From the NCBI RefSeq assembly GCF_053078305.1, contig NZ_CP166879.1: DNA of 64,000 nucleotides, one strand, 5' to 3'. Positions 3,463 through 57,574 of the stretch are shown here, piece after piece. The notes under the pieces are model-generated. The model ran no database searches. It saw nothing but the letters and a program-made list of their open reading frames with translations, and was not told the DNA's origin. The position numbers were made by a program, and so were the translations under genes. How positions within the stretch are numbered: the stretch's first letter is position 1; every line of letters starts with the position of its first letter.

Positions 3463-4203
3463 ATGCTGCAAAATATTCGAATTGTGCTGGTGGAGACGTC
3501 ACACACCGGCAATATGGGTTCTGTTGCCCGTGCCATGAAAACAATGGGATTAACCAATCTGTGGCTGGTTAATCCACTGGTGAAACCTGACTCCCAGGCT
3601 ATTGCCCTGGCGGCGGGGGCCAGCGATGTGATTGGTAATGCTCACATCGTCGATACGCTCGACGAAGCGTTAGCCGGTTGTAGCCTGGTGGTGGGCACCA
3701 GCGCACGTTCCCGCACGCTGCCGTGGCCGATGCTCGACCCGCGCGAATGCGGTCTGAAAAGCGTCGCTGAAGCGGCAAATACCCCGGTGGCGCTGGTCTT
3801 TGGTCGCGAGCGCGTCGGCTTGACCAATGAAGAGTTGCAGAAATGCCATTATCATGTCGCGATTGCGGCAAACCCGGAATACAGTTCGCTGAACCTGGCA
3901 ATGGCGGTTCAGGTTATTGCCTATGAAGTGCGTATGGCCTGGCTGGCAACTCAGGAAAATGGCGAGCAGGTCGAGCATGAAGAGACGCCGTATCCGCTGG
4001 TCGATGATCTGGAGCGTTTTTATGGTCATCTGGAACAAACGCTGCTGGCAACCGGTTTTATCCGTGAAAACCATCCGGGGCAGGTGATGAATAAATTGCG
4101 CCGTCTGTTTACCCGTGCGCGCCCGGAAAGCCAGGAATTGAATATCCTGCGCGGGATTCTGGCTTCTATAGAGCAGCAGAATAAAGGTAATAAGGCCGAA
4201 TAA
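3463..4203 (+). CDS. trmJ: tRNA (cytidine/uridine-2'-O)-methyltransferase TrmJ
   Basis: 246-aa SPOUT-family ORF divergent from suhB. Confidence 0.9.
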
Positions 4204-4211
4204 CAGTGGTT

Positions 4212-4297
4212 GCCTGATGCGATGCTTAACGCGTCTTATCAGGCCTACAGTGAACAGAACCGTAGGTCGGATAAGGTGTTCACACCGCATCCGACAA
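4212..4297. repeat. REP/BIME palindromic elements downstream of trmJ
   Basis: GCCTGATGCGATGCTTAACGCGTCTTATCAGGCCTAC and GTAGGTCGGATAAGGTGTTCACACCGCATCCGACAA match REP consensus. Confidence 0.6.
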
Positions 4298-4337
4298 CAG
4301 GTACAAACGCCACGATAAAAAAATGGCACTGAAGGTT

Positions 4338-4961: not shown

Positions 4962-5072
4962 TAAAAAGAATTCAGAATCAGGCCGGAGTGCTAAATACTC
5001 CGTAAACACGGTCGTACATCCAGCCGGTAGCCTGATTCCTTGCATTGAGTGATGTACGGAGTTTATAGAGCA

Positions 5073-10126: not shown

Positions 10127-11410
10127 ATGACAGAAGCGATGAAAATTACCCTTTCTACCCAACCTGCCGACGCGCGCTGGGGAGAAAAAGCAACTTACAG
10201 CATTAATAATGATGGCATTACCCTGCATTTGAACGGGGCAGACGATCTGGGGCTGATCCAGCGTGCGGCGCGCAAGATTGACGGTCTGGGCATCAAGCAT
10301 GTTCAGCTAAGCGGTGAAGGCTGGGATGCGGATCGCTGCTGGGCATTCTGGCAAGGTTACAAAGCCCCGAAAGGCACGCGTAAAGTGGAGTGGCCGGATC
10401 TGGACGATACCCAGCGCCAGGAACTCGATAACCGCCTGATGATCATCGACTGGGTGCGTGACACCATCAACGCACCGGCGGAAGAGCTGGGGCCATCGCA
10501 ACTGGCACAGCGTGCTGTTGATCTGATCAGCAACGTCGCGGGCGATCGTGTGACTTATCGGATCACCAAAGGCGAAGATCTGCGTGAGCAAGGTTATATG
10601 GGGCTGCACACCGTCGGACGCGGTTCAGAACGTTCTCCGGTATTGCTGGCGCTGGATTACAACCCAACTGGCGATAAAGAAGCGCCAGTGTACGCGTGCC
10701 TGGTAGGTAAAGGTATCACTTTTGACTCCGGTGGCTACAGCATCAAACAGACTGCGTTTATGGACTCGATGAAGTCGGACATGGGCGGCGCGGCAACGGT
10801 TACCGGGGCGCTGGCATTTGCCATTACGCGCGGACTGAACAAGCGCGTGAAGCTGTTCCTCTGCTGTGCGGATAACCTGATTAGCGGCAATGCGTTCAAG
10901 CTGGGCGATATCATCACCTATCGCAACGGTAAAAAAGTTGAAGTGATGAACACTGATGCCGAAGGGCGTCTGGTGCTTGCCGATGGTCTGATTGATGCCA
11001 GTGCGCAGAAACCGGAAATGATCATTGATGCGGCGACCCTCACCGGGGCGGCGAAAACTGCGCTGGGTAATGATTATCACGCGCTGTTCAGTTTTGACGA
11101 TGCGCTTGCCGGTCGTTTGCTGGCGAGTGCCTCACAAGAGAACGAACCATTCTGGCGTCTGCCGCTGGCGGAATTCCACCGCAGCCAGCTGCCGTCTAAC
11201 TTTGCCGAACTGAACAATACCGGAAGCGCGGCGTATCCGGCAGGCGCGAGCACGGCAGCGGGCTTCCTGTCGCACTTTGTTGAGAACTATCAGCAAGGCT
11301 GGCTGCATATCGACTGCTCGGCGACTTACCGTAAAGCGCCGGTTGAACAGTGGTCTGCGGGTGCTACGGGACTTGGTGTGCGCACGATTGCTAATCTGTT
11401 AACGGCGTAA
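10127..11410 (+). CDS. pepB: aminopeptidase B PepB (M17 family)
   Basis: 427-aa ORF, leucyl aminopeptidase motifs. Confidence 0.9.
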
Positions 11411-11418
11411 ACTAATAT

Positions 11419-11518
<100 letters not shown>

Positions 11519-11543
11519 TTGTGCCCCGAACGTTGAATGAATT

Positions 11544-12329
11544 GTGGTTCTTATGTCCGAAACAAAAAATGAACTTGAAGACCTGCTGGAAAAAGCAGCA
11601 ACCGAACCGGCGCACCGCCCGGCCTTTTTCCGTACTCTACTGGAATCCACCGTCTGGGTGCCTGGTACGGCGGCGCAGGGCGAGGCTGTGGTTGAAGATA
11701 GCGCGCTTGATTTACAGCACTGGGAAAAAGAAGACGGCACCAGCGTCATTCCTTTTTTTACCTCGTTAGAAGCACTTCAACAGGCGGTTGAAGACGAACA
11801 GGCATTTGTCGTAATGCCCGTTCGCACATTGTTTGAGATGACCCTTGGCGAAACGCTCTTCCTTAATGCCAAACTGCCGACCGGTAAAGAATTTATGCCG
11901 CGTGAAATCAGTTTGTTGATTGGTGAAGAGGGAAATCCGCTGAGCAGCCAGGAAATCCTGGAAGGCGGTGAATCGCTGATATTATCGGAAGTCGCAGAGC
12001 CGCCAGCACAAATGATTGATTCACTCACCACCTTATTTAAAACCATTAAGCCTGTGAAGCGTGCTTTTATTTGTTCAATTAAAGAGAACGAAGAGGCACA
12101 GCCTAATTTACTTATTGGCATTGAAGCCGATGGTGATATCGAAGAAATTATTCAGGTGGCGGGAAGTGTAGCGACCGATACATTACCTGGCGATGAACCA
12201 ATCGATATTTGTCAGGTGAAAAAAGGGGAAAAAGGAATTAGCCACTTTATTACCGAACATATTGCGCCATTCTATGAACGTCGCTGGGGTGGTTTTTTGC
12301 GTGACTTTAAACAGAATCGGATAATCTAA
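11544..12329 (+). CDS. sseB: serine sensitivity enhancing protein SseB
   Basis: 261-aa ORF; synteny; alternative start at 11553 (MSETKNE). Confidence 0.8.
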   Translation: MVLMSETKNELEDLLEKAATEPAHRPAFFRTLLESTVWVPGTAAQGEAVVEDSALDLQHWEKEDGTSVIPFFTSLEALQQAVEDEQAFVVMPVRTLFEMTLGETLFLNAKLPTGKEFMPREISLLIGEEGNPLSSQEILEGGESLILSEVAEPPAQMIDSLTTLFKTIKPVKRAFICSIKENEEAQPNLLIGIEADGDIEEIIQVAGSVATDTLPGDEPIDICQVKKGEKGISHFITEHIAPFYERRWGGFLRDFKQNRII

Positions 12330-12646
12330 AATATGCCGCCCCAAAGGGCGGCATTCGGGCTTACCTGCTGCTCTGAAGGTTGTTAATCACCAGTAAATTG
12401 TTACCGGAGAGACTCCGGTTATTATTTACCTCGGTTAACAGCGCACCAGAAACAATAAGTACGATACAAAAGCACCGTATCTTCATTGTGCGGTCCATGC
12501 GAAGACCGCATCACGACAGCACCACTGGCGATATTGCCGCGATAGCAAGCGCTGTGAAACACCTGCATTTACGGCCACGGAACATCCTTTCCTAAAGCCA
12601 GCGCCCGTTTGCGAGACGGCGGAAAGGGCCGGTGTCGATAATACGC
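12330..12646 (-). ncRNA. ryfA: ryfA-like RNA copy 1 (candidate small-protein mRNA, TimP/RyfA family)
   Basis: location between sseB and sseA; minus-strand terminator hairpin at 12332-12353; conserved internal hairpins; predicted length ~300 nt; 5' end inferred. Confidence 0.45.
12361..12498 (-). CDS. 45-codon small hydrophobic ORF inside ryfA-like copy 1 (MDRTMKIRCFCIVLIVSGALLTEVNNNRSLSGNNLLVINNLQSSR), candidate small membrane toxin
   Basis: hand-translated minus strand; conserved in copy 2 with 2 synonymous and 2 conservative changes; not in ORF track (below size cutoff). Confidence 0.4.
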   Translation of the reverse strand: MDRTMKIRCFCIVLIVSGALLTEVNNNRSLSGNNLLVINNLQSSR

Positions 12647-12661
12647 TAAATAAACAATAAT

Positions 12662-12704
12662 TACTCTCTTTTGCTTGACAAAAAGAGAGTTGCTGGCGAA
12701 TATT
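12662..12704. promoter_or_regulatory. palindromic divergent promoter region of ryfA-like locus copy 1
   Basis: inverted repeat ACTCTCTTTT-GCTTGAC-AAAAGAGAGT centred on TTGACA (plus) / TTGTCA (minus) -35-like hexamers. Confidence 0.35.
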
Positions 12705-12709
12705 GCTCT

Positions 12710-12812
12710 GCTGTGAAGCACCTGCGTTGCTCATGCAACACAAGTCAATCTGCTGGAGAGGCCGCGAACCAAACCGGCAACAAATAACCGCCTGATTTTG
12801 GCGGTTTTTTGT
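12710..12812 (+). ncRNA. candidate short plus-strand sRNA divergent from ryfA-like copy 1
   Basis: TTGACA-N18-AATATT promoter-like sequence at 12675-12704 and hairpin+T6 terminator at 12786-12812; internal hairpin GTTGC-loop-GCAAC conserved in copy 2 with loop change. Confidence 0.3.
12786..12812. terminator. bidirectional rho-independent terminator (copy 1)
   Basis: AACCGCC-TGATTT-GGCGGTT followed by TTTTTT. Confidence 0.55.
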
Positions 12813-12930
12813 TGCTTAAAGAAAGTGAATTTACATGTTTAAGTAATATCTTTTACCGGTTAGTATTTTTAATATTGAGCGGGATTTGTTTATATTTGTC
12901 TGAATTCGGACTAATAAGCCAGGTTATTTT

Positions 12931-13010
12931 ATTACTGACATATTGCGCCATTCTATGAACGTCGCTGGGGTGGTTTTTTGCATCACTTTAAACAGAATCG
13001 GATAATCTAA
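12931..13010 (+). pseudogene. duplicated 3' fragment of sseB carried on repeat unit 2
   Basis: near-identical to sseB codons for ...HIAPFYERRWGGFLRDFKQNRII* but without upstream gene. Confidence 0.55.
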
Positions 13011-13327
13011 AATATGCCGCCCCAAAGGGCGGCATTCGGGCTTACCTGCTGTTCTGAAGGTTGTTGACCACCAGTAAATTGTTGCCGGAGAGACTCCGGT
13101 TATTATTTACCTCGGTTAACAGCGCACCAGAAACAATAAGTACGATACAGAAGCACCGTATCTTCATTGTGCGGTCCATGCGAAGACCGCATCACGACAG
13201 CACCACTGGCGATATTGCCGCGATAGCAAGCACTGTGGGGTGCCTGTATTTACGGTCATGGAACATCCTTTCCTAAAGCCAGCGCCCGTTTGCGAGACGG
13301 CGAAAAGGGCCATTAAGAATAATACTC
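13011..13327 (-). ncRNA. ryfA: ryfA-like RNA copy 2
   Basis: 681-bp offset copy of 12330..12646 with conserved terminator hairpin at 13013-13034. Confidence 0.4.
13042..13179 (-). CDS. 45-codon small hydrophobic ORF, copy 2 (…VVNNLQNSR)
   Basis: same frame and length as 12361..12498; differences F(ttt>ttc) and G(ggt>ggc) synonymous, I>V and S>N conservative. Confidence 0.4.
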   Translation of the reverse strand: MDRTMKIRCFCIVLIVSGALLTEVNNNRSLSGNNLLVVNNLQNSR

Positions 13328-13391
13328 TCATGTTTGAATAATTACTCTGTTTATTATCTTGACACAGCCAGGCATAAAAGAGAGTATTTCA

Positions 13392-13495
13392 ACACTGTGG
13401 GGTGCCTGCGTTGCTCCGGCAACACAAGTCAACCTGCTGGAAAGGCCGCGAACCAGACCAGCAATAAAAAACCGCCAAATTCGGCGGTTTTTTAT
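13392..13495 (+). ncRNA. candidate short plus-strand sRNA, copy 2
   Basis: homolog of 12710..12812 ending at hairpin AAAAACCGCC-AAATTC-GGCGGTTTTT. Confidence 0.3.
13466..13495. terminator. bidirectional terminator shared by sseA and ryfA-like locus
   Basis: perfect hairpin flanked by A6 and T6, 15 bp beyond sseA stop. Confidence 0.6.
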
Positions 13496-21999: not shown

Positions 22000-24381
22000 A
22001 TGGATACGCCAGACGAAAAGGAACGCATTACATTTCCGCAAGTATCACGACGTAGTTTTTTACAAGCGACTTCCGCGCTTATCACTTTGCCTTTTATTTC
22101 TTATACCGTAAAGGCGCAATCCCCAGATGCGTCGCCAGAAGTTACAGCTCCAGTAGCTGATAAAGTCGTGCCCACCTGTAGCACATTTGACTGCGGTGGT
22201 AAGTGCGATATTCGGGCGCATATGCGCGACGGTGTGGTGACGCAAATTACCACGCTTCCCGATAACGAACTGGATCCACAAATGCCGATTATGCGCGCCT
22301 GTGTTCGTGGTTGCGGCTATCGTAAATTTGTTTATCATCCAGACCGCCTCAAATATCCGATGAAACGGGTCGGTAAACGGGGCGAGGGGAAATTTGAGCG
22401 TATTTCATGGGATGAGGCGACGACCTTAATTGCCGATAACCTGAAAAGGATCACGCAACAATATGGCCCGGCTTCACGTTATGTCCATGTCGGGACGGCT
22501 GTTTCTGGTGGAACATTTTCTGGTGATGCGATGGCGCGTCGGCTGTTAAATTTAACCGGTGGTTATCTTGAATATTATCACTCAGTTAGTCTGGGTAATA
22601 CTGCGGCGGCAACGCCTTACACGTATGGCGTGGCGGCCAGCGGTAACTCGATGGATACTCTTCTGGATACCAAACTGGTGATCCTCTGGGGGCATAACCC
22701 AACGGAAACCATCTTCGGTCACACCAATTACTTTTTTCAAAAAATGAAGCAAAACGGTACGCGTTTTATCGTGGTAGATCCGCGTTATTCCGACACTGTA
22801 TCTTCGCTTGCCGATCAGTGGATCCCGCTGCTGCCGACCACGGACAATGCGTTGATGGACGCGATGATGTACGTCATTATCAGCGAAAATCTCCACAATA
22901 AGACATTTATCGACACATATACTCTCGGTTTTGATGAAAACTCTATGCCAGAAGGCGTACCAGCCAACGAATCGTTGGTTGCCTACCTTTTTGGCGCAAA
23001 AGATGGGATACACAAAACGCCGGAATGGGCAGAAAAAATTACCCACGTTCCAGCACAATCCATTCGTCAACTGGCACGCGATTACGCCACTACAAAACCC
23101 GCAGCGTTGATTCAGGGATGGGGGCCACAGCGACATATTTGCGGCGAACGCACCGCCCGAGGTTCAACTTTACTGGCCTCGATTACCGGTAACGTCGGCA
23201 TCAAAGGTGGCTGGGCGGCAGGTTACGGCGGTAGTTCTAATCGTAAATTCTGCGTTGGACCAGATATGCCAGAAAATCCGGTACAAGCGAAAATCTCGAT
23301 TATGAACTGGATGCAGGCGGCGGATGATGCTTCTAAAGTTACGCCGCAAGATGGGCTTAAAGGTGTCGATAAACTCGACAGTAATATCCGCCTGCTGTTC
23401 TCACTGGCAGGTAATTATCTGGCGAACCAGAACCCGGACGTCCACCAGGCCGCGAAGCTCCTTGAAGACGAATCTAAAATAGAATTCATCGTACTCAGCG
23501 ATCTGTTCATGACTCCGAGCGCGAAATATGCCGATGTGTTGCTGCCGGAAACCAGCTTTATGGAACGCTGGAATATCGGCGAAACATGGGGAACTGCGAG
23601 CTATCTTATTCTGTCAGAAAAACTGATTGAGCCGGATTTTGAACGTCGCACCGATTATGACTGGTTGCGTGACGTGGCGAAAAAACTGGGTGTCGAAGCC
23701 GAGTTCAGTCAAGGACGTGATGAGAAGCAATGGGTAGAGCATATCTGGGAGCAAACTCGTCTGGCGATGCCGGATGAAAATTTGCCGGACTTCGCGACCC
23801 TGCAAAAAACACGTCGACATCTTTTTAAAAGTGCGCCGCACATCGCTTTCGAAGCAAATATTCGCGATCCGCAGAATAATCCTTTCCCGACGCCTTCCGG
23901 CAAAATTGAGATCTTCTCTAAGCGTCTTTTTGATATGCAAGATCCAGAAATTCCCGCGCTTTCGCACTATGTCCCTGCATTTGAAGGGCCAGAAGATAAA
24001 CTGACGGCGAAATACCCGTTGCAGCTCATCACCTGGAAAGGGAAAAACCGTGCTAATTCCACCCAGTATGCTAACCCGTGGCTGCAAGAAGTTCAGACGC
24101 AAAAACTCTGGCTGAATCCGCAAGATGCAAAACAGCGCGGGATTAGCGAAGGAGATAGCGTAAAAATTTATAACGATCGTGGTGTGAGCATTATCCCGGT
24201 GGAAATAACCCCCCGTATCATCCCTGGCGTAGTTGCTATGCAGGCGGGGGCATGGTGGCAACCGGATGCACAAGGTATCGATCGCGGAGGCTGTGCCAAT
24301 GTACTGAGTTCGACCCGCATTACGGCGCTGGCGAAAGGGAATTCGCATCAAACAATGCTGGTGGAGGTTGAGAAAGCATGA
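22000..24381 (+). CDS. molybdopterin (DMSO reductase family) oxidoreductase catalytic subunit with Tat signal
   Basis: 793 aa; SRRSFLQATSAL twin-arginine motif; N-terminal CxxCxxxC Fe-S motif (CSTFDCGGKC). Confidence 0.85.
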   Translation: MDTPDEKERITFPQVSRRSFLQATSALITLPFISYTVKAQSPDASPEVTAPVADKVVPTCSTFDCGGKCDIRAHMRDGVVTQITTLPDNELDPQMPIMRACVRGCGYRKFVYHPDRLKYPMKRVGKRGEGKFERISWDEATTLIADNLKRITQQYGPASRYVHVGTAVSGGTFSGDAMARRLLNLTGGYLEYYHSVSLGNTAAATPYTYGVAASGNSMDTLLDTKLVILWGHNPTETIFGHTNYFFQKMKQNGTRFIVVDPRYSDTVSSLADQWIPLLPTTDNALMDAMMYVIISENLHNKTFIDTYTLGFDENSMPEGVPANESLVAYLFGAKDGIHKTPEWAEKITHVPAQSIRQLARDYATTKPAALIQGWGPQRHICGERTARGSTLLASITGNVGIKGGWAAGYGGSSNRKFCVGPDMPENPVQAKISIMNWMQAADDASKVTPQDGLKGVDKLDSNIRLLFSLAGNYLANQNPDVHQAAKLLEDESKIEFIVLSDLFMTPSAKYADVLLPETSFMERWNIGETWGTASYLILSEKLIEPDFERRTDYDWLRDVAKKLGVEAEFSQGRDEKQWVEHIWEQTRLAMPDENLPDFATLQKTRRHLFKSAPHIAFEANIRDPQNNPFPTPSGKIEIFSKRLFDMQDPEIPALSHYVPAFEGPEDKLTAKYPLQLITWKGKNRANSTQYANPWLQEVQTQKLWLNPQDAKQRGISEGDSVKIYNDRGVSIIPVEITPRIIPGVVAMQAGAWWQPDAQGIDRGGCANVLSSTRITALAKGNSHQTMLVEVEKA

Positions 24382-25007
24382 GCCAATTTAAAGAATTTGC
24401 ATCTGTCAGCGACAAACAATTAGGGTTCTTTATTGACTCTTCGCGTTGTTCTGGCTGTAAAGCGTGTCAGGTGGCCTGTAAAGACAAAAACAACCTTGAG
24501 GTTGGGCGACGTTTTCGCCGCGTGTATGAAGTGAACGGCGGTGGCTTCATCGCCACTGGAGAGGGCGGTGTGAGTCATAATGTCTTTGCTTATACCCTTT
24601 CTGTTTCCTGTAACCATTGCGCGGATCCGATCTGTACCAAAAATTGCCCGACGATGGCGATGCATAAGCGTCCCGGAGACGGCATTGTGCGCGTGAATAC
24701 TGATAAGTGCGTCGGTTGCGGTTACTGCGCCTGGTCCTGTCCTTACGGCGCACCACAAATGAATGAGCAGACCGGGCAGATGTCGAAATGCGATTTCTGT
24801 ATTGATCTGCAAGCTAAAGGAGAACAACCCATTTGCGTGGCAACGTGCCCGTTGGGGGCGATTAAGTTCGGCCCTATTGATGAGTTGCGTGAAAAGTATG
24901 GCGATGTCAGTGATGTGAAAGGTTTACCTGATTCGTCGATTACGCAGCCAAATCTGGTGATTAAACCGCATCAGGGCGCGGAAAAGGAGGCGTCACATCA
25001 TGCATGA
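24378..25007 (+). CDS. 4Fe-4S ferredoxin-type electron transfer subunit (DmsB-like)
   Basis: 209 aa with multiple CxxCxxCxxxCP motifs; ATGA overlap with upstream gene. Confidence 0.85.
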   Translation: MSQFKEFASVSDKQLGFFIDSSRCSGCKACQVACKDKNNLEVGRRFRRVYEVNGGGFIATGEGGVSHNVFAYTLSVSCNHCADPICTKNCPTMAMHKRPGDGIVRVNTDKCVGCGYCAWSCPYGAPQMNEQTGQMSKCDFCIDLQAKGEQPICVATCPLGAIKFGPIDELREKYGDVSDVKGLPDSSITQPNLVIKPHQGAEKEASHHA

Positions 25008-25821
25008 ATTACCGTTAATGGCTTTTACGCTGTTGTTACAGGCATCGGTCGGTATGACGTTGTGGCTGGCGTTTCTTCATCGTCATATTTTAATCACCTC
25101 CAGTGCCCGCCCGGTTATGCGACCGCCATTACTGTTGGCTTTTTTGGCCGGGGCAGTAGGGTTACTGATTTCTACCTTACACCTGGGTTATCCACTTAAT
25201 GCGATGCATGCGCTAAGTCACTTTTCCAGTTCATGGCTGAGTCGGGAAATTATCTTTGGTGCGCTGTATCTGGCGCTATTGGGTTTAACCACATTACTGG
25301 TCATGTTACACAAAGGCGGCTGGCAACTCCTTCTTATGCTAGCGGCAGTGGTCGGAATTGTTGATGTTTTCTGCATGGCGCAAGTTTACATCCATACGTC
25401 GATTATCACCTGGCAGCATTACAACACGCTGATTATGTTCTTAGGTACAGTGGGAATTCTCGGTTCAGCGCTGGTAGCAGTGTTTCGTATTAGCGGAATT
25501 TTGCCGCAGATTGATGCCCTGCGTAATGGATGCGTGTTGGTGATCGCTCTCCTGGTTCTGTTGCGCTTGTTGGTTCAGCCGTTGTGGGTAGGGGATTTAA
25601 CGGCGAATGCGATGCAGATAGCTACACTGCCACATGCGCCATTAGCGATGCTGGGACAGTTAAAACCCATACTGACACTAAGCTGGGGAATTTCCGTCAT
25701 TGGGATGATGTTCTTTGCTGTCGGTGGTTGTAAAAAGAATATCCCTGCGGCGTTATTCGGTAGCGTACTGCTAGTGGGCAGTGAAGTTATGCTGCGTTTT
25801 GTCTTTTTTAGTATCGGCTAA
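25000..25821 (+). CDS. integral membrane anchor subunit (DmsC-like)
   Basis: 273 aa, highly hydrophobic multi-TM; 8-bp overlap with upstream gene. Confidence 0.75.
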   Translation: MHELPLMAFTLLLQASVGMTLWLAFLHRHILITSSARPVMRPPLLLAFLAGAVGLLISTLHLGYPLNAMHALSHFSSSWLSREIIFGALYLALLGLTTLLVMLHKGGWQLLLMLAAVVGIVDVFCMAQVYIHTSIITWQHYNTLIMFLGTVGILGSALVAVFRISGILPQIDALRNGCVLVIALLVLLRLLVQPLWVGDLTANAMQIATLPHAPLAMLGQLKPILTLSWGISVIGMMFFAVGGCKKNIPAALFGSVLLVGSEVMLRFVFFSIG

Positions 25822-26675
25822 TGTTAAGTCATAACATAACGATTGGCGCGGAATGCGCGCGCCAACGCTTTCGTTTTGCAACATGTCATGCCTGTGTCGA
25901 GGCTTGCCCGGCACAGGCGCTAACGCTGACAGAAGAGGGCATAGCGGTCGACGCGGAACAATGTATTGAGTGTGCGGTTTGCCAGTTTATTTGTCCGCAA
26001 GAGGCTATTCGTGGCGTTAATTCCCCTTTACGTTATTTTCGCAATCACACCCTGGTCGCACCTTTCACCACTATTGCGCCGACGCTGGAAGAACTTTTGC
26101 TATGGCATAAAGAGCAGGGGATCACAGCGATCGCGATTGATCTGAGTCAGGCGAAGGCATGGGAGCGCGCATTATTGCTGTTAAACGAACGCTTACGGCA
26201 ATATGGCGAGGAAGGCTGGTCTGTGGTATCTCCACATACCAGTGAGGTGAATGTTTCCCGGCGTCGTTTGTTCCATGTGCAGCGTGCGGATGTTCAGATG
26301 ACACAAATACAACCAGGATTACGTCGGTTACATTATTTATGGCCCCAGATTAGTGATGCTCGCCCGATGATGGATCCTCAAAAGTGTCAGCTTTGCGGTG
26401 CATGCTGGCGGGCCTGCGAGCAACAGGTCTTTTCGCTTAACGAAGGCCATTTACAAATCAATGATGCCTTGTGTAACGGATGCCAAAATTGTATTGCTGT
26501 TTGTTTTCATCAGGCAATGACCGTTGAATTGACGATTCTACCGGCAAAAATTGTGAATCTTCATGCTAATCGCAAAGTCTGTAAAACCTGTCAAAAATCC
26601 TTTCTTACTTTTCAGCAAAATGCGCAAAATTGTCTTTATTGCCAACGTCATCGCTATGGGATGAGAGCACCATAA
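25821..26675 (+). CDS. cysteine-rich ferredoxin-like protein, fourth gene of the operon
   Basis: 284 aa; motifs CHACVEACP, CIECAVCQFICP, CQLCGACWRAC, CNGCQNCIAVC; TAATG stop/start overlap. Confidence 0.7.
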   Translation: MLSHNITIGAECARQRFRFATCHACVEACPAQALTLTEEGIAVDAEQCIECAVCQFICPQEAIRGVNSPLRYFRNHTLVAPFTTIAPTLEELLLWHKEQGITAIAIDLSQAKAWERALLLLNERLRQYGEEGWSVVSPHTSEVNVSRRRLFHVQRADVQMTQIQPGLRRLHYLWPQISDARPMMDPQKCQLCGACWRACEQQVFSLNEGHLQINDALCNGCQNCIAVCFHQAMTVELTILPAKIVNLHANRKVCKTCQKSFLTFQQNAQNCLYCQRHRYGMRAP

Positions 26676-41105: not shown

Positions 41106-42386
41106 ATGGCGATTAACGGAGTGGACGGTGTTAGCGCAGTCACCGTGGATGAACTACTCAAGCAAGGCCTTCGGATACCGAACTATCAACGCCCATACAG
41201 TTGGGAAGTATCGACCGCTCTACAACTGGTGGATGATCTCAGCGAAGCTCTTCGAGATACCGAAAGAAAAGATATTCCCTATGTTTTGGGTGCAATCATT
41301 CTTCACGATGATGGTGAGTATCTCAATGTAGTCGACGGACAGCAACGTCTGCTGACTTTGCGAATGATTCTTGCGGCCTTAGATCCGATAAATCACCAAA
41401 TTTCGGTGTCTGGTAACAGAGAAACCTCTGTCTCCCTGGTTTGGATAGAGCTTCAAAGGCGCCTGTCGCAGTTGGAAGATAAAAAAGAATTTTTGGATTT
41501 TATCTGTCACAAATGTCAGTTGGTGCGTATTGTGACGGACGATATTGATGAGGCATTCCGTGTCTTTGATTCCCAGAACTATCGCGGCAAACCGCTTGCC
41601 CCTCATGACTTGCTCAAAGCACACCACCTGCGCGAAATGCACGATGAGTCCGCTGCTATGAAAGTGGCTGTCGTTGAGGCTTGGGAAGCCGTAAATGATG
41701 AGGATCTGGACAGGCTTTTTTCTACTTTTTTATACCGGATATCCAAGTGGTCACGAGGAGAAAGCTCGCTCGAATTTGCTATTCGGGACATCGGTATGTT
41801 CAAGGGAATTTCATCACGATCCCACAGATCATTTTCGCCAAATCTGCGATATCACCTTGCAGCACAAGCCGCTATGCCACTTCTAAGTGCATGGGCGGTG
41901 TCCTCGACACATGATGCTCGAAATGCCGGGCGCAGCCGCTTTCAGCTTGATGCCCCGATAATCGCTGGGCGCTCATTTTTCGAGATGGTGGCATTCATGC
42001 TTGACGAATTGAAGATACTGGAAAAAGAGGTTATCGACAAAGGTTTCAAAAACTTTGGCCCATCTCAAAGTCGCTACCGCTACGTGTACGAATTGTTCAT
42101 TGCCGCTCTGCTTTGCTATACAAACAAGTTTGGCGATGAAGATGTGGATGAAGTGCGAAATAGGTTATTCGCATGGGCATATGCCTTGCGGGTCGAGTTA
42201 CTTCGTGTGCAATTTGTATCTGCTGACAACCGAGCTCGAGGTAAAAACGATGCAAATAAATCGCCTTTTGTTTTGCTACGCAACGCGATGACTGGAAGTG
42301 TTGTCCGCAAACTTCCAATAGCAAGTCAGCCATACAACGATAACCACGAAAAGGAACTCATTGCTTTTATCAAGGGGCTGCAATGA
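41106..42386 (+). CDS. DUF262-like (ParB/Srx-fold, GmrS-like) protein without nuclease domain; first gene of accessory two-gene cassette
   Basis: 426 aa; N-terminal IPNYQRPYSW and DGQQRL motifs at ~aa 25-80, later FDSQNYRGKPL motif; SD AAGGGA upstream; stop overlaps next start. Confidence 0.8.
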   Translation: MAINGVDGVSAVTVDELLKQGLRIPNYQRPYSWEVSTALQLVDDLSEALRDTERKDIPYVLGAIILHDDGEYLNVVDGQQRLLTLRMILAALDPINHQISVSGNRETSVSLVWIELQRRLSQLEDKKEFLDFICHKCQLVRIVTDDIDEAFRVFDSQNYRGKPLAPHDLLKAHHLREMHDESAAMKVAVVEAWEAVNDEDLDRLFSTFLYRISKWSRGESSLEFAIRDIGMFKGISSRSHRSFSPNLRYHLAAQAAMPLLSAWAVSSTHDARNAGRSRFQLDAPIIAGRSFFEMVAFMLDELKILEKEVIDKGFKNFGPSQSRYRYVYELFIAALLCYTNKFGDEDVDEVRNRLFAWAYALRVELLRVQFVSADNRARGKNDANKSPFVLLRNAMTGSVVRKLPIASQPYNDNHEKELIAFIKGLQ

Positions 42387-44335
42387 GCAAGAAGGAGTTG
42401 AAACCCGAACTGCTAACAGTAGGCAAGCTATTCACGGACAATTATCTGATTCCTATTTATCAACGGAACTATGCTTGGCGGGCCGAACAGATTGAGCAAC
42501 TTATCAGCGATATTCAAGACTCGGTTGTTGGGGGCCAGGACGACTATTTTCTTGGAAACCTTGTTGTAATCAAGCGGGGTAGAGAGGACGAGTTCGAGGT
42601 CATAGATGGACAACAACGACTTACAACCCTCTATCTGCTTCTGACCTTCCTGGAGCAAGACGGTGAGGGTGGGAAGCCGTCGATTGGCCATGCAGGCCAC
42701 TTGCAATATGAGTCGCGTGCACGGGCAACGGAAGCCCTGCGGCGAGTAGCACAGGAGGCGGCTAAGGGGCACGTCCGACCGCAGGGCTCCACGAGTAATG
42801 CAGATGCTGGCATCCATGAAGGCTACAGCATCATCAATCAGTTCTTCAAACAAAATGAAACCCTTAATTGCTCACGCGAAAAATTCTCCGATTTCTTGCT
42901 AACGAAGGTTACTGTCGTCCGTGCCTCGCTGCCACCCAATACAGATCTCAATCGCTACTTCGAGATCATGAACACTCGTGGGCAGCAACTCAAGCAGGTT
43001 GATATTGTTAAGGCTCGCCTGATGAGCAAGCTGCCCAATCAATATGAACGCGAATGCTTCGCCTGGGTTTGGGATGCCTGTGCTGAGATGGATTCTTATG
43101 TCCAGATGTCTCTGACCCGTGGTGACACCAGTTTGCGAAACAAAGTATTTGGCGATGAATGGTCCTGGCTGGAGGTGACCAGCTTCGCGTCGTTAATGGA
43201 AAGTCGTCCGCAATCCGGCATCAATTCTTCAAGGCAATCCTCCGAAGGGGTATCGTTGTCCTTGGATGAGGCGTTGTCAAAATACGCTAAAGAGATCGAG
43301 TCAAATTCCACTGAAGACGAGGGCAACGAGCGGTTTCGTTCGACTATTGAGTTTCCGGCCTTTCTGCTACACGTTCTAAGAATTATGAAAGGCGATGAGG
43401 TCGAAGACGAAGGCCAGCTTGACGACAAACGCCTCATCAAGTCATTTGACGACGCTGTAAATAATGTACCCGATGCTAAAGCCGATTGGGTGCGTAACTT
43501 TACATTCATGCTCCTCAAGTGCCGCAACCTCTTCGATGGCTTCATTTTGAAGCGTCAATTCACGGCGAACATCGGTGACGATGGCGATTGGTCTCTCCAG
43601 CGATTGAAGAAAGGCGGCGCGGACAAGAAGCCAACCCCGACGTATATCCATGTTTTCTCGGCCAGCAATGGAAACTTAGAGGAGGACGGCGGTGCTGACC
43701 CACATACCCGAGATGTATTGCTGCTTCAGTCCATGCTTCGGATAACCTACACTTCTCCGCGAACGATGCACTGGATTACCAAAGTTCTTCGCTGGCTATC
43801 CGTCAAAGCCCCTCAAGACGCGAAACATGCGGATCTTGCCGATTTGTTGAAGGGGTATGCCCGCAGCAAGGTCAAAGAGACATTCCCCTTTGAGGAAGAT
43901 CAGCAACCACAAGGGTTTGGTATCAGCCGCATCGTCTTTTCGTATCTCGACTATCTTCTGTTGAGCGATTCCTCAAAACGAGATTTCAAATTTCAGTTCA
44001 GAACTTCCATTGAGCACTTTTATCCACAGCATCCGGACAAAGAACAGTCGGGCGCGGTTGTTTCAGGTTCTAGCCTTAACCTGCTTGGCAACCTTGCGCT
44101 CGTAAGCGTCAGCGCGAACTCAAAATTCAGCAATAGCCTTCCCAGAGCGAAGGCCGAAAACTTCAAGGATACGATTGAACTTCAAAGTCCCAAGCTCAAG
44201 AGAATGGCGGAAATCACTCGAAATACAAGCTGGGACGATCAGCAGATAACAGCTCATCATGAAGAGATGGTGACATTGCTTCGTGATGATGTAAGTCTGG
44301 TGGAGGCAAGCGGAAGATCCTACCCGGGGCGTTGA
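42383..44335 (+). CDS. GmrSD/SspE-like protein: N-terminal DUF262-like domain fused to C-terminal DUF1524-like His-Me finger nuclease domain (putative modification-dependent or defence endonuclease)
   Basis: 650 aa; IPIYQRNYAW and DGQQRLTTL motifs; FEIMNTRGQQL; C-terminal SIEHFYPQHP ... GNLALVSVSANSKFSN. Confidence 0.8.
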   Translation: MSKKELKPELLTVGKLFTDNYLIPIYQRNYAWRAEQIEQLISDIQDSVVGGQDDYFLGNLVVIKRGREDEFEVIDGQQRLTTLYLLLTFLEQDGEGGKPSIGHAGHLQYESRARATEALRRVAQEAAKGHVRPQGSTSNADAGIHEGYSIINQFFKQNETLNCSREKFSDFLLTKVTVVRASLPPNTDLNRYFEIMNTRGQQLKQVDIVKARLMSKLPNQYERECFAWVWDACAEMDSYVQMSLTRGDTSLRNKVFGDEWSWLEVTSFASLMESRPQSGINSSRQSSEGVSLSLDEALSKYAKEIESNSTEDEGNERFRSTIEFPAFLLHVLRIMKGDEVEDEGQLDDKRLIKSFDDAVNNVPDAKADWVRNFTFMLLKCRNLFDGFILKRQFTANIGDDGDWSLQRLKKGGADKKPTPTYIHVFSASNGNLEEDGGADPHTRDVLLLQSMLRITYTSPRTMHWITKVLRWLSVKAPQDAKHADLADLLKGYARSKVKETFPFEEDQQPQGFGISRIVFSYLDYLLLSDSSKRDFKFQFRTSIEHFYPQHPDKEQSGAVVSGSSLNLLGNLALVSVSANSKFSNSLPRAKAENFKDTIELQSPKLKRMAEITRNTSWDDQQITAHHEEMVTLLRDDVSLVEASGRSYPGR

Positions 44336-56763: not shown

Positions 56764-57465
56764 CTGAACACACCGGCACAGCTCTCTTTGCCACTTTATC
56801 TTCCTGACGACGAAACCTTTGCAAGTTTCTGGCCGGGGGATAACTCCTCTTTACTGGCCGCGCTGCAAAACGTGCTGCGTCAGGAACATAGCGGTTACAT
56901 CTATCTCTGGGCACGCGAAGGCGCGGGGCGCAGCCATCTGCTGCACGCGGCTTGCGCGGAATTGTCGCAGCGTGGCGATGCGGTGGGCTATGTCCCGCTG
57001 GATAAACGCACCTGGTTTGTTCCGGAAGTGCTCGACGGTATGGAGCATTTGTCGCTGGTCTGTATCGACAACATTGAGTGTATTGCAGGCGATGAGTTGT
57101 GGGAGATGGCGATTTTCGATCTCTACAATCGAATTCTGGAATCGGGCAAAACACGGTTGTTGATCACCGGCGATCGTCCACCGCGGCAGTTGAATCTGGG
57201 ATTACCGGATCTCGCGTCGCGACTCGACTGGGGGCAGATCTACAAATTGCAGCCACTTTCTGATGAAGATAAGTTGCAGGCGCTACAGTTACGCGCGCGT
57301 TTGCGTGGTTTTGAACTGCCGGAAGATGTGGGGCGTTTCTTGCTGAAGCGGCTCGACAGAGAAATGCGCACGCTATTTATGACGTTGGATCAGTTGGATC
57401 GTGCGTCGATTACCGCGCAACGTAAATTGACCATTCCGTTTGTGAAAGAAATTCTGAAGTTGTAG
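56764..57465 (+). CDS. hda: DnaA regulatory inactivator Hda
   Basis: ORF track 56719..57465 starts at GTG; recognised 233-aa protein begins at CTG codon 56764 ([12 protein letters not shown]), as I recall from the literature. Confidence 0.75.
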
Positions 57466-57479
57466 ATAAGGTGTGTATT

Positions 57480-57574
57480 GTCGGATGCGGCGCGAACGCC
57501 TTATCCGAACTACGCGAAGTTAATCCATAGTATTCGTAGGCCGGATAAGACGTGGCAAGCGTCGCATCCGGCAA
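57480..57574. repeat. REP/BIME elements between hda and yfgD
   Basis: GTCGGATGCGGCGCGAACGCCTTATCCGAACTAC and GTAGGCCGGATAAGACGTGGCAAGCGTCGCATCCGGCA. Confidence 0.6.

Follow-up and report, generated by a model that had tools for sequence, protein, structure and literature searches.

Inverted REP pairs behind trmJ, pepB and hda in an Escherichia coli chromosome are genuine REP/BIME repeats

In E. coli, REPs have been described as imperfect palindromes of 30–40 nt with a conserved GTAG at the foot, which fall into the types y, z1 and z2 and need a mismatch in the stem for binding by RayT (Ton-Hoang et al. 2012, PMC3333891). [quoted passage not shown] PU-BIMEs interact with gyrase and IHF and act as mRNA stabilizers and transcription attenuators (PMC2267715). 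The three sites analyzed here share with the E. coli REP/PU sequences studied by Gilson, Bachellier and colleagues (PMC3333891) the length of 29–37 nt, the palindrome with an internal mismatch, the GTAG/CTAC foot, the inverted pairing, the linker classes, the extragenic position and the high copy number. Nothing essential differs from known E. coli BIMEs; the first site is a single unit here and comprises three units in K-12.

Two further systems are close enough for comparison. REP325, a six-unit Y/Z2 BIME-2 array between yjdM and yjdN that is represented by naRNA4 in Rfam (RF02564), serves as the experimental model for a dual role as terminator and stabilizer: it is a partly Rho-dependent terminator and stabilizes the upstream mRNA (Harris et al. 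2026, bioRxiv 10.64898/2026.03.23.713779). Its Y and Z2 hairpins are like those at our sites, and its unit architecture is that of site 1. The REPINs of Pseudomonas (Bertels and Rainey, PMC3116915) also consist of two inverted REPs that can form one long hairpin, as predicted here for sites 2 and 3, and they resemble E. coli REP pairs in their dependence on a RAYT (PMC3116915). On the other hand, REPINs belong to another sequence family and another genus and are built from two copies of one REP, whereas E. coli combines Y with Z.

The stretch of DNA under study, here called the window, comprises 64,000 nucleotides of contig NZ_CP166879.1 and is part of an E. coli chromosome, in which the gene order is that of MG1655 at 2.60–2.67 Mb in inverted orientation. 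The 601 nt around the trmJ-iscR site are 100% identical to strain ET350 and 95–100% identical in 5,425 of 5,426 complete E. coli genomes; it is this overall identity that establishes the E. coli origin. The repeats had originally been taken as typical enterobacterial extragenic palindromes that help to confirm the origin at genus level. Their extragenic nature holds, but they are no genus marker, because Salmonella also possesses PU-BIMEs (PMC2267715). Synteny with annotated MG1655 and the PGAP annotation beneath the BLAST matches confirmed the gene names: site 1 lies between trmJ and iscR and site 2 between pepB and sseB, all four genes being on the plus strand, and site 3 separates the convergent genes hda and yfgD (named arsC by PGAP). 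All six REP units are intergenic, and PGAP annotates nothing beneath the BIMEs. The elements are as follows, with unit types assigned by comparison with independent MG1655 REPs and with bit scores and E-values from the covariance model described below.

4205–4211, plus strand: head-flanking motif of site 1, 7 nt, AGTGGTT, corresponding to AGCCGTT of MG1655
4212–4248, plus strand: first REP of site 1, Z2-type, 37 nt, GCCTGATGCGATGCTTAACGCGTCTTATCAGGCCTAC, 44.5 bits, E 7.5e-9, predicted hairpin -19.5 kcal/mol
4249–4261, no strand assigned: tail-to-tail linker of site 1, S class, 13 nt, AGTGAACAGAACC
4262–4295, minus strand: second REP of site 1, Y-type, 34 nt, GTCGGATGCGGTGTGAACACCTTATCCGACCTAC, 49.3 bits, E 5e-10
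11419–11452, plus strand: first REP of site 2, Y-type, 34 nt, exact consensus, GCCGGATGCGGCGTAAACGCCTTATCCGGCCTAC, 60.2 bits, E 1e-12
11453–11487, no strand assigned: L linker of the BIME-1 at site 2, 35 nt, core TGCAAATTCAACAAATTGTGA
11488–11516, minus strand: second REP of site 2, Z1-type, 29 nt, GCCTGATGCGCCATACTTATCAGGCCTAC, 35.1 bits, E 1.6e-6
57480–57513, plus strand: first REP of site 3, Y-type, 34 nt, GTCGGATGCGGCGCGAACGCCTTATCCGAACTAC, 38.8 bits, E 2e-7
57514–57535, no strand assigned: tail-to-tail linker of site 3, 22 nt, GCGAAGTTAATCCATAGTATTC
57536–57572, minus strand: second REP of site 3, Z2 length (37 nt) with a Y-like GCCGGATG head, GCCGGATGCGACGCTTGCCACGTCTTATCCGGCCTAC, 46.0 bits, E 3.3e-9

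Direct reading and extraction of the sequences thus yielded three inverted, tail-to-tail pairs. The tail motif CTTATCMGGCCTAC, with up to two mismatches allowed, occurs six times in the window and only at the three REP sites, compared to 0.66 expected occurrences, and none of 100 shuffled sequences reached this count. Since Rfam contains no REP family as such and offers no usable REP model, we constructed our own covariance model from 23 aligned MG1655 REPs, using the known hairpin as the structure. These REPs stem from loci unrelated to the window, namely 150 kb of MG1655 sequence covering the rayT REPtron, the mal region and the nuo-his region, which hold 24 REPs. When the whole window was searched with filters switched off, the model retrieved exactly the six listed units, which score 35–60 bits with E-values between 1e-12 and 1.6e-6. 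After these, at E 0.08, comes the reverse strand of a palindrome already found, and there is no further REP site at E<1 in the 64 kb. The original prediction of paired inverted REPs after trmJ, pepB and hda, for which a scan with REP models had been proposed as the check, is therefore borne out in full: no REP site in the window had been missed, and the predicted ranges (4212–4297, 11419–11518 and 57480–57574) are right to within 1–2 nt.

The structural features of the family are present throughout. All six units end in a CTAC foot (GTAG on the other strand) and form an imperfect palindrome with an internal C/T mismatch, such that an unpaired C and an unpaired T flank the upper stem; the predicted hairpins range from -10.6 to -21.3 kcal/mol. 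When the 24 MG1655 REPs and the six from the window were considered together, 96.3% of the pair cells in these 30 sequences form standard pairs, and compensatory changes are found in five pairs and 40 cells. Pairing as high as this was reached in none of 500 shuffles, and no slid register came close. The sequence of site 2 is found in at least 39–40 places per genome in 5,425 of 5,426 E. coli genomes. A foldable palindrome, the GTAG foot, the stem mismatch, an extragenic position and dispersed occurrence in high copy number thus all characterize the six units. The three sites are genuine E. coli REP/BIME repeats, and an origin of the six units by chance is excluded.

Hairpins rich in G+C that lie behind genes could also represent plain intrinsic terminators, or palindromes that resemble REPs only by chance. 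We regard this as next to impossible: six matches with E-values of 1.6e-6 or lower to a model derived from unrelated loci, a CTAC foot in every unit and dozens of copies per genome all speak against it, and none of the hairpins is followed by a T-run. A scan for intrinsic terminators found no hairpin with a subsequent T-run at any of the three sites, and the reading as Rho-independent terminators was rejected as no such combination overlaps any REP. Rfam at gathering thresholds gave no match at the three sites. The naRNA4 family matches them with 28–40 bits, the best scores for the three sites being 40.3, 40.3 and 31.2 bits; all are below the gathering threshold of 59.5 bits, and membership was rejected. 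These sub-threshold matches arise because the REP hairpin is common to both, not because a naRNA4 gene is present. Matches to miRNAs obtained at the sites in the E-value mode of Rfam were spurious.

Apart from the repeats, the window contains several features that are lacking in MG1655 or differ from it. A four-gene operon of the DMSO reductase family resides between pbpC and ndk (22000–26675, plus strand) and encodes a molybdopterin oxidoreductase (793 aa), a 4Fe-4S subunit (209 aa), a DmsC-type anchor (273 aa) and a second ferredoxin-like protein (284 aa). MG1655 does not have this operon, and its pbpC-ndk gap is about 150 bp; the covariance model detected no REP flanking the operon. Two overlapping genes of the GmrSD family between guaA and yfgI (41106–44335, plus strand) are likewise absent from MG1655. 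One combines GmrSD_N with DUF7834 (426 aa), the other GmrSD_N with GmrSD_C (650 aa), and PADLOC matches them best to HEC-06, Orf5 and SspE-like models; the two genes probably form a small islet of type IV restriction or defence. Finally, the ryfA sRNA/toxin locus is duplicated (12257–13493, minus strand). Rfam ryfA matches lie at 12328–12632 and 13009–13313 with an IS128 RNA match between them (12768–12977), and the locus contains a 300-nt direct repeat with 97% identity and a spacing of 681 nt. MG1655 carries a single ryfA/timP together with timR in this place.

Site 2 in the pepB-sseB intergenic region is a textbook BIME-1 (Y-L-Z1), with inverted Y and Z1 units, a long conserved L linker and a single copy. 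The Y unit starts 8 nt past the pepB stop codon (TAA, 11408–11410) and the Z1 unit ends 36 nt before the ATG of sseB (11553). An IHF-like site, ATTCAACAAATTG, is located within the L linker at 11465–11477 and deviates from WATCAANNNNTTR by one mismatch. The linker core TGCAAATTCAACAAATTGTGA and the IHF-like site ATTCAAnnnnTTG are both shared with an independent MG1655 BIME-1 between ubiA and plsB; one-mismatch matches of this kind are common, with 62 in the 64 kb when both strands are counted. The linker region 11453–11495 (plus strand) also resembles Rfam ES036 (CssrF) with 23.7 bits (E 0.009), which is below the gathering score of 37.6; this likeness suggests a possible origin of the ES036 sRNA from a BIME-1. 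In 5,424 of 5,426 genomes site 2 has its full length, and its span is equal in 28 of 29 sampled chromosomes, the remaining one being shorter with 447 nt. Compared to MG1655, three substitutions weaken the upper stem of the Z1 unit in the window strain, and its predicted hairpin is the one with -10.6 kcal/mol. The allele with the altered Z1 upper stem (11416–11520) is found with at least 99% identity in about 540 of about 5,500 records, including O157:H7 and O145. As the trmJ-iscR region of the window is unlike that of these strains, the strain combines alleles that occur in different lineages.

Site 1, on the other hand, represents one unit of a BIME-2 (Z2-S-Y). The Z2 unit begins 8 nt past the trmJ stop codon (TAA, 4201–4203), and motif, Z2 unit, linker and Y unit together make up a single 91-nt unit (4205–4295). 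In independent MG1655 Y/Z2 BIMEs, the tail-to-tail linkers measure 14–17 nt. When compared with the MG1655 copies, the Y unit carries U-A in place of a C-G pair in the upper stem, a double change that keeps the bases paired. The trmJ-iscR region of MG1655 carries 3.0 tandem copies of the 91-nt unit, with AGCCGTT also separating the tandem units head to head, and an O145 strain carries two. The pairing of Y and Z2 around a short linker, the head-side motif and the tandem variation across strains are all characteristic of BIME-2. We followed this variation in 60 records taken in even steps down the match ranking; strain P276M was left aside for its odd trmJ match and its low-quality assembly full of frameshifted pseudogenes. 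One unit is present in 31 records (about 52%), two units in six (10%) and the three units of the K-12 type in seven (12%). In another 15 records (about 25%), among them O157:H7, other sequence lies between the same junctions. This replacement is a dispersed repeat of 128 nt (249–376 of the compared O157:H7 NE92 locus), which occupies 17 places per genome in the median and may resemble boxC. When it is present, trmJ is one codon shorter and ends at a TGA inside the repeat. In either allele, trmJ takes its final codon and its stop codon from the variable segment (4199–4298 in the window), and the start codon of iscR follows about 180 nt downstream. Further along, between iscR and iscS, the iscR stability element (Rfam iscRS) is found at 4962–5071 on the plus strand with 138 bits, as expected for this operon.

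Site 3, between hda and yfgD, fits best into the atypical class of BIMEs and is best described as an atypical Y/Z2-like pair, because its 22-nt linker belongs neither to the S class (13–17 nt) nor to the L class (35–36 nt). The Y unit starts 14 nt past the stop codon of hda (TAG, 57463–57465), and the second unit, which has a Z2 upper stem but a Y-like head, starts 30 nt past the stop codon of yfgD on the minus strand. This second unit is identical to MG1655 REP182, GCCGGAUGCGACGCUUGCCACGUCUUAUCCGGCCUA, and the whole hda-yfgD intergenic region differs from MG1655 by a single flanking SNP. The REP182 annotation covers only the yfgD-proximal REP, whereas the hda-proximal Y unit (57480–57513) lies outside its coordinates. 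The supplement of bioRxiv 10.64898/2026.03.23.713779 lists the REP182 hairpin as bidirectional terminator no. 202 (yfgD:hda:bepA) in both log and stationary phase and places a rut peak and a bicyclomycin-sensitive transcript start next to it. Full-length site 3 occurs in 5,419 of 5,426 genomes; about 32 nt are missing in four of 30 sampled genomes. No repeat_region features are listed in the MG1655 RefSeq annotation as used here, and REP numbers could not be taken from there. Since REP182 lies at hda-yfgD and REP185 beyond trmJ, the other two sites are presumably REP183 and REP184 of MG1655. The identification of REPs was right but generic in its original form: the three sites fall into three BIME classes (BIME-2, BIME-1 and atypical), and the IHF-type L linker had gone without comment.

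It could be argued that the REPs at the three loci are mere leftovers of RayT-driven spread, selfish or neutral, which are tolerated between genes and have no function for the host. The variable copy number of site 1 and the presence of a different repeat in its place in roughly 25% of the genomes, the segment lost from site 3 in some of them and the degraded Z1 unit of site 2 in the window strain all agree with such a view. However, sites 2 and 3 are kept in about 5,420 of 5,426 genomes, compensatory changes keep the stems paired and the site 3 hairpin has been catalogued as a bidirectional terminator. We consider it rather unlikely that the elements are mere relics. The rayT gene, which encodes the cognate REP-associated transposase, is not located in the 64-kb window. 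A megablast search with rayT from MG1655 (22637–23134 of the rayT region) detected the gene in only 3,574 of 5,426 complete E. coli genomes; none of the 5,426 lacks REP/BIMEs.

The reading that we prefer, with a probability of roughly 0.9, is that the three sites are REP/BIME elements; they most likely act as transcribed 3'-UTR hairpins that protect the upstream mRNA and attenuate read-through. As the BIMEs directly follow the stop codons and a canonical intrinsic terminator was not found at any of the sites, the trmJ, pepB, hda and yfgD mRNAs probably carry them at their 3' ends. Predicted RNA folds of the sites reach -41 to -55 kcal/mol, with z-scores of -4.8 to -6.2 relative to shuffled sequences, and are dominated by the REPs; site 1 is predicted to form two separate hairpins, sites 2 and 3 one long hairpin between the REPs each. 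Such G+C-rich hairpins would block 3'-to-5' exonucleases and thereby stabilize the upstream message, and they would attenuate or terminate read-through into iscR or sseB, in part together with Rho. Between the convergent genes hda and yfgD, they would limit read-through in both directions. Published work on other REPs and the local anatomy make this the most likely mechanism at the three sites. In the 2026 preprint, tandem gene pairs with a REP have a higher ratio of upstream to downstream expression, and in convergent pairs with a REP both genes are more highly expressed (bioRxiv 10.64898/2026.03.23.713779). On the other side, this preprint emphasizes that REP effects depend on context and that terminal REPs are not generally tied to longer mRNA half-lives. 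The REP literature searched, including the RepRanger supplements, yielded no mention of trmJ-iscR or pepB-sseB. It also counts against the proposed role that site 1 is dispensable as such, being replaced in about one quarter of the sampled E. coli genomes, that the Z1 upper stem of site 2 is weakened in the window strain and that rayT was detected in only 3,574 of 5,426 genomes.

The hairpins could instead act mainly on translation by stalling the terminating ribosome, with the consequence that tmRNA tags the protein and less TrmJ, PepB and Hda is made. PMC12306157 states, with reference to Liang et al. 2015, that translation is reduced if fewer than 16 nt separate a hairpin from the stop codon, and the gaps between stop codon and REP hairpin are 8 nt for trmJ, 8 nt for pepB and 14 nt for hda (30 nt for yfgD). 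As the hairpins start 8–14 nt past the stop codon, translation of trmJ, pepB and hda may possibly be lowered. However, this spacing is the norm for REPs: at nine of 12 independent MG1655 REP sites the distance is 13 nt or less, and at one the REP overlaps the stop codon. A special stop-codon spacing at the three sites was therefore rejected. Furthermore, trmJ, pepB and hda were not encountered in the literature searched, and it appears doubtful that translation is the main target. In MG1655, the TAG with which yafL terminates is part of the GTAG foot of the REP located closely upstream of rayT (22458–22461 of the rayT region), and a REP can therefore overlap a coding end.

A main role at the level of DNA has likewise to be weighed. 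According to this explanation, the pepB-sseB BIME-1 would serve as an IHF site (a RIP/RIB element) and the trmJ-iscR BIME-2 as a site for gyrase binding and cleavage, and both would shape local supercoiling and the nucleoid instead of acting on RNA. It is consistent with the L-linker core and the IHF-like ATTCAAnnnnTTG shared with an independent BIME-1, with the cited interaction of gyrase and IHF with PU-BIMEs (PMC2267715) and with the fixation of site 2 at full length in 5,424 genomes. The IHF-like match in the window, however, contains a mismatch and is one of 62 such matches. In addition, long-range REP-REP contacts and nucleoid compaction by REP325 were not found in bioRxiv 10.64898/2026.03.23.713779, and nucleoid condensation by naRNA4 with HU was not reproduced. 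The idea is also compatible with action on RNA, and we consider it a less likely candidate for the main role. IHF would probably find a site in the L linker of site 2, as gyrase would in the BIME-2 of site 1, and binding of these proteins is a likely property of the DNA; the roles at the RNA level and at the DNA level are not mutually exclusive. The original suggestion that the repeats may be transcript stabilizers or gyrase sites names roles documented for REPs (PMC2267715; Harris et al. 2026), with the refinement that gyrase binding is mainly attributed to the BIME-2 class in the literature. Termination (partly Rho-dependent) and reduced translation where hairpin and stop codon are less than 16 nt apart are equally relevant documented roles (PMC12306157; bioRxiv 10.64898/2026.03.23.713779).

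A more speculative and quite improbable proposal is that the variable content of the trmJ-iscR region, that is, one to three BIME-2 units or the 128-nt repeat, constitutes a lineage-specific expression dial, which might set the read-through from trmJ into iscRSUA, the amount of TrmJ or the supercoiling at the iscR promoter. If this were true, E. coli lineages would differ in Fe-S cluster homeostasis while promoter and coding sequence remain unchanged.

The three REP/BIME sites are ordinary and long known in kind and hold nothing new. REP182 has already been named and catalogued, and the other two sites appear to be neighboring numbered MG1655 elements. The REPs account for the sole strong secondary structures in the three intergenic regions, and annotators are warned that these hairpins are neither intrinsic terminators nor sRNA genes. 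The trmJ-iscR region is a locus of variable copy number at which assemblies can break and which can be used to type strains. If REPs are context-dependent 3'-UTR regulators, the three sites are candidates for tuning the expression of trmJ, pepB, hda and yfgD, which would be known biology applied to these genes rather than a discovery.
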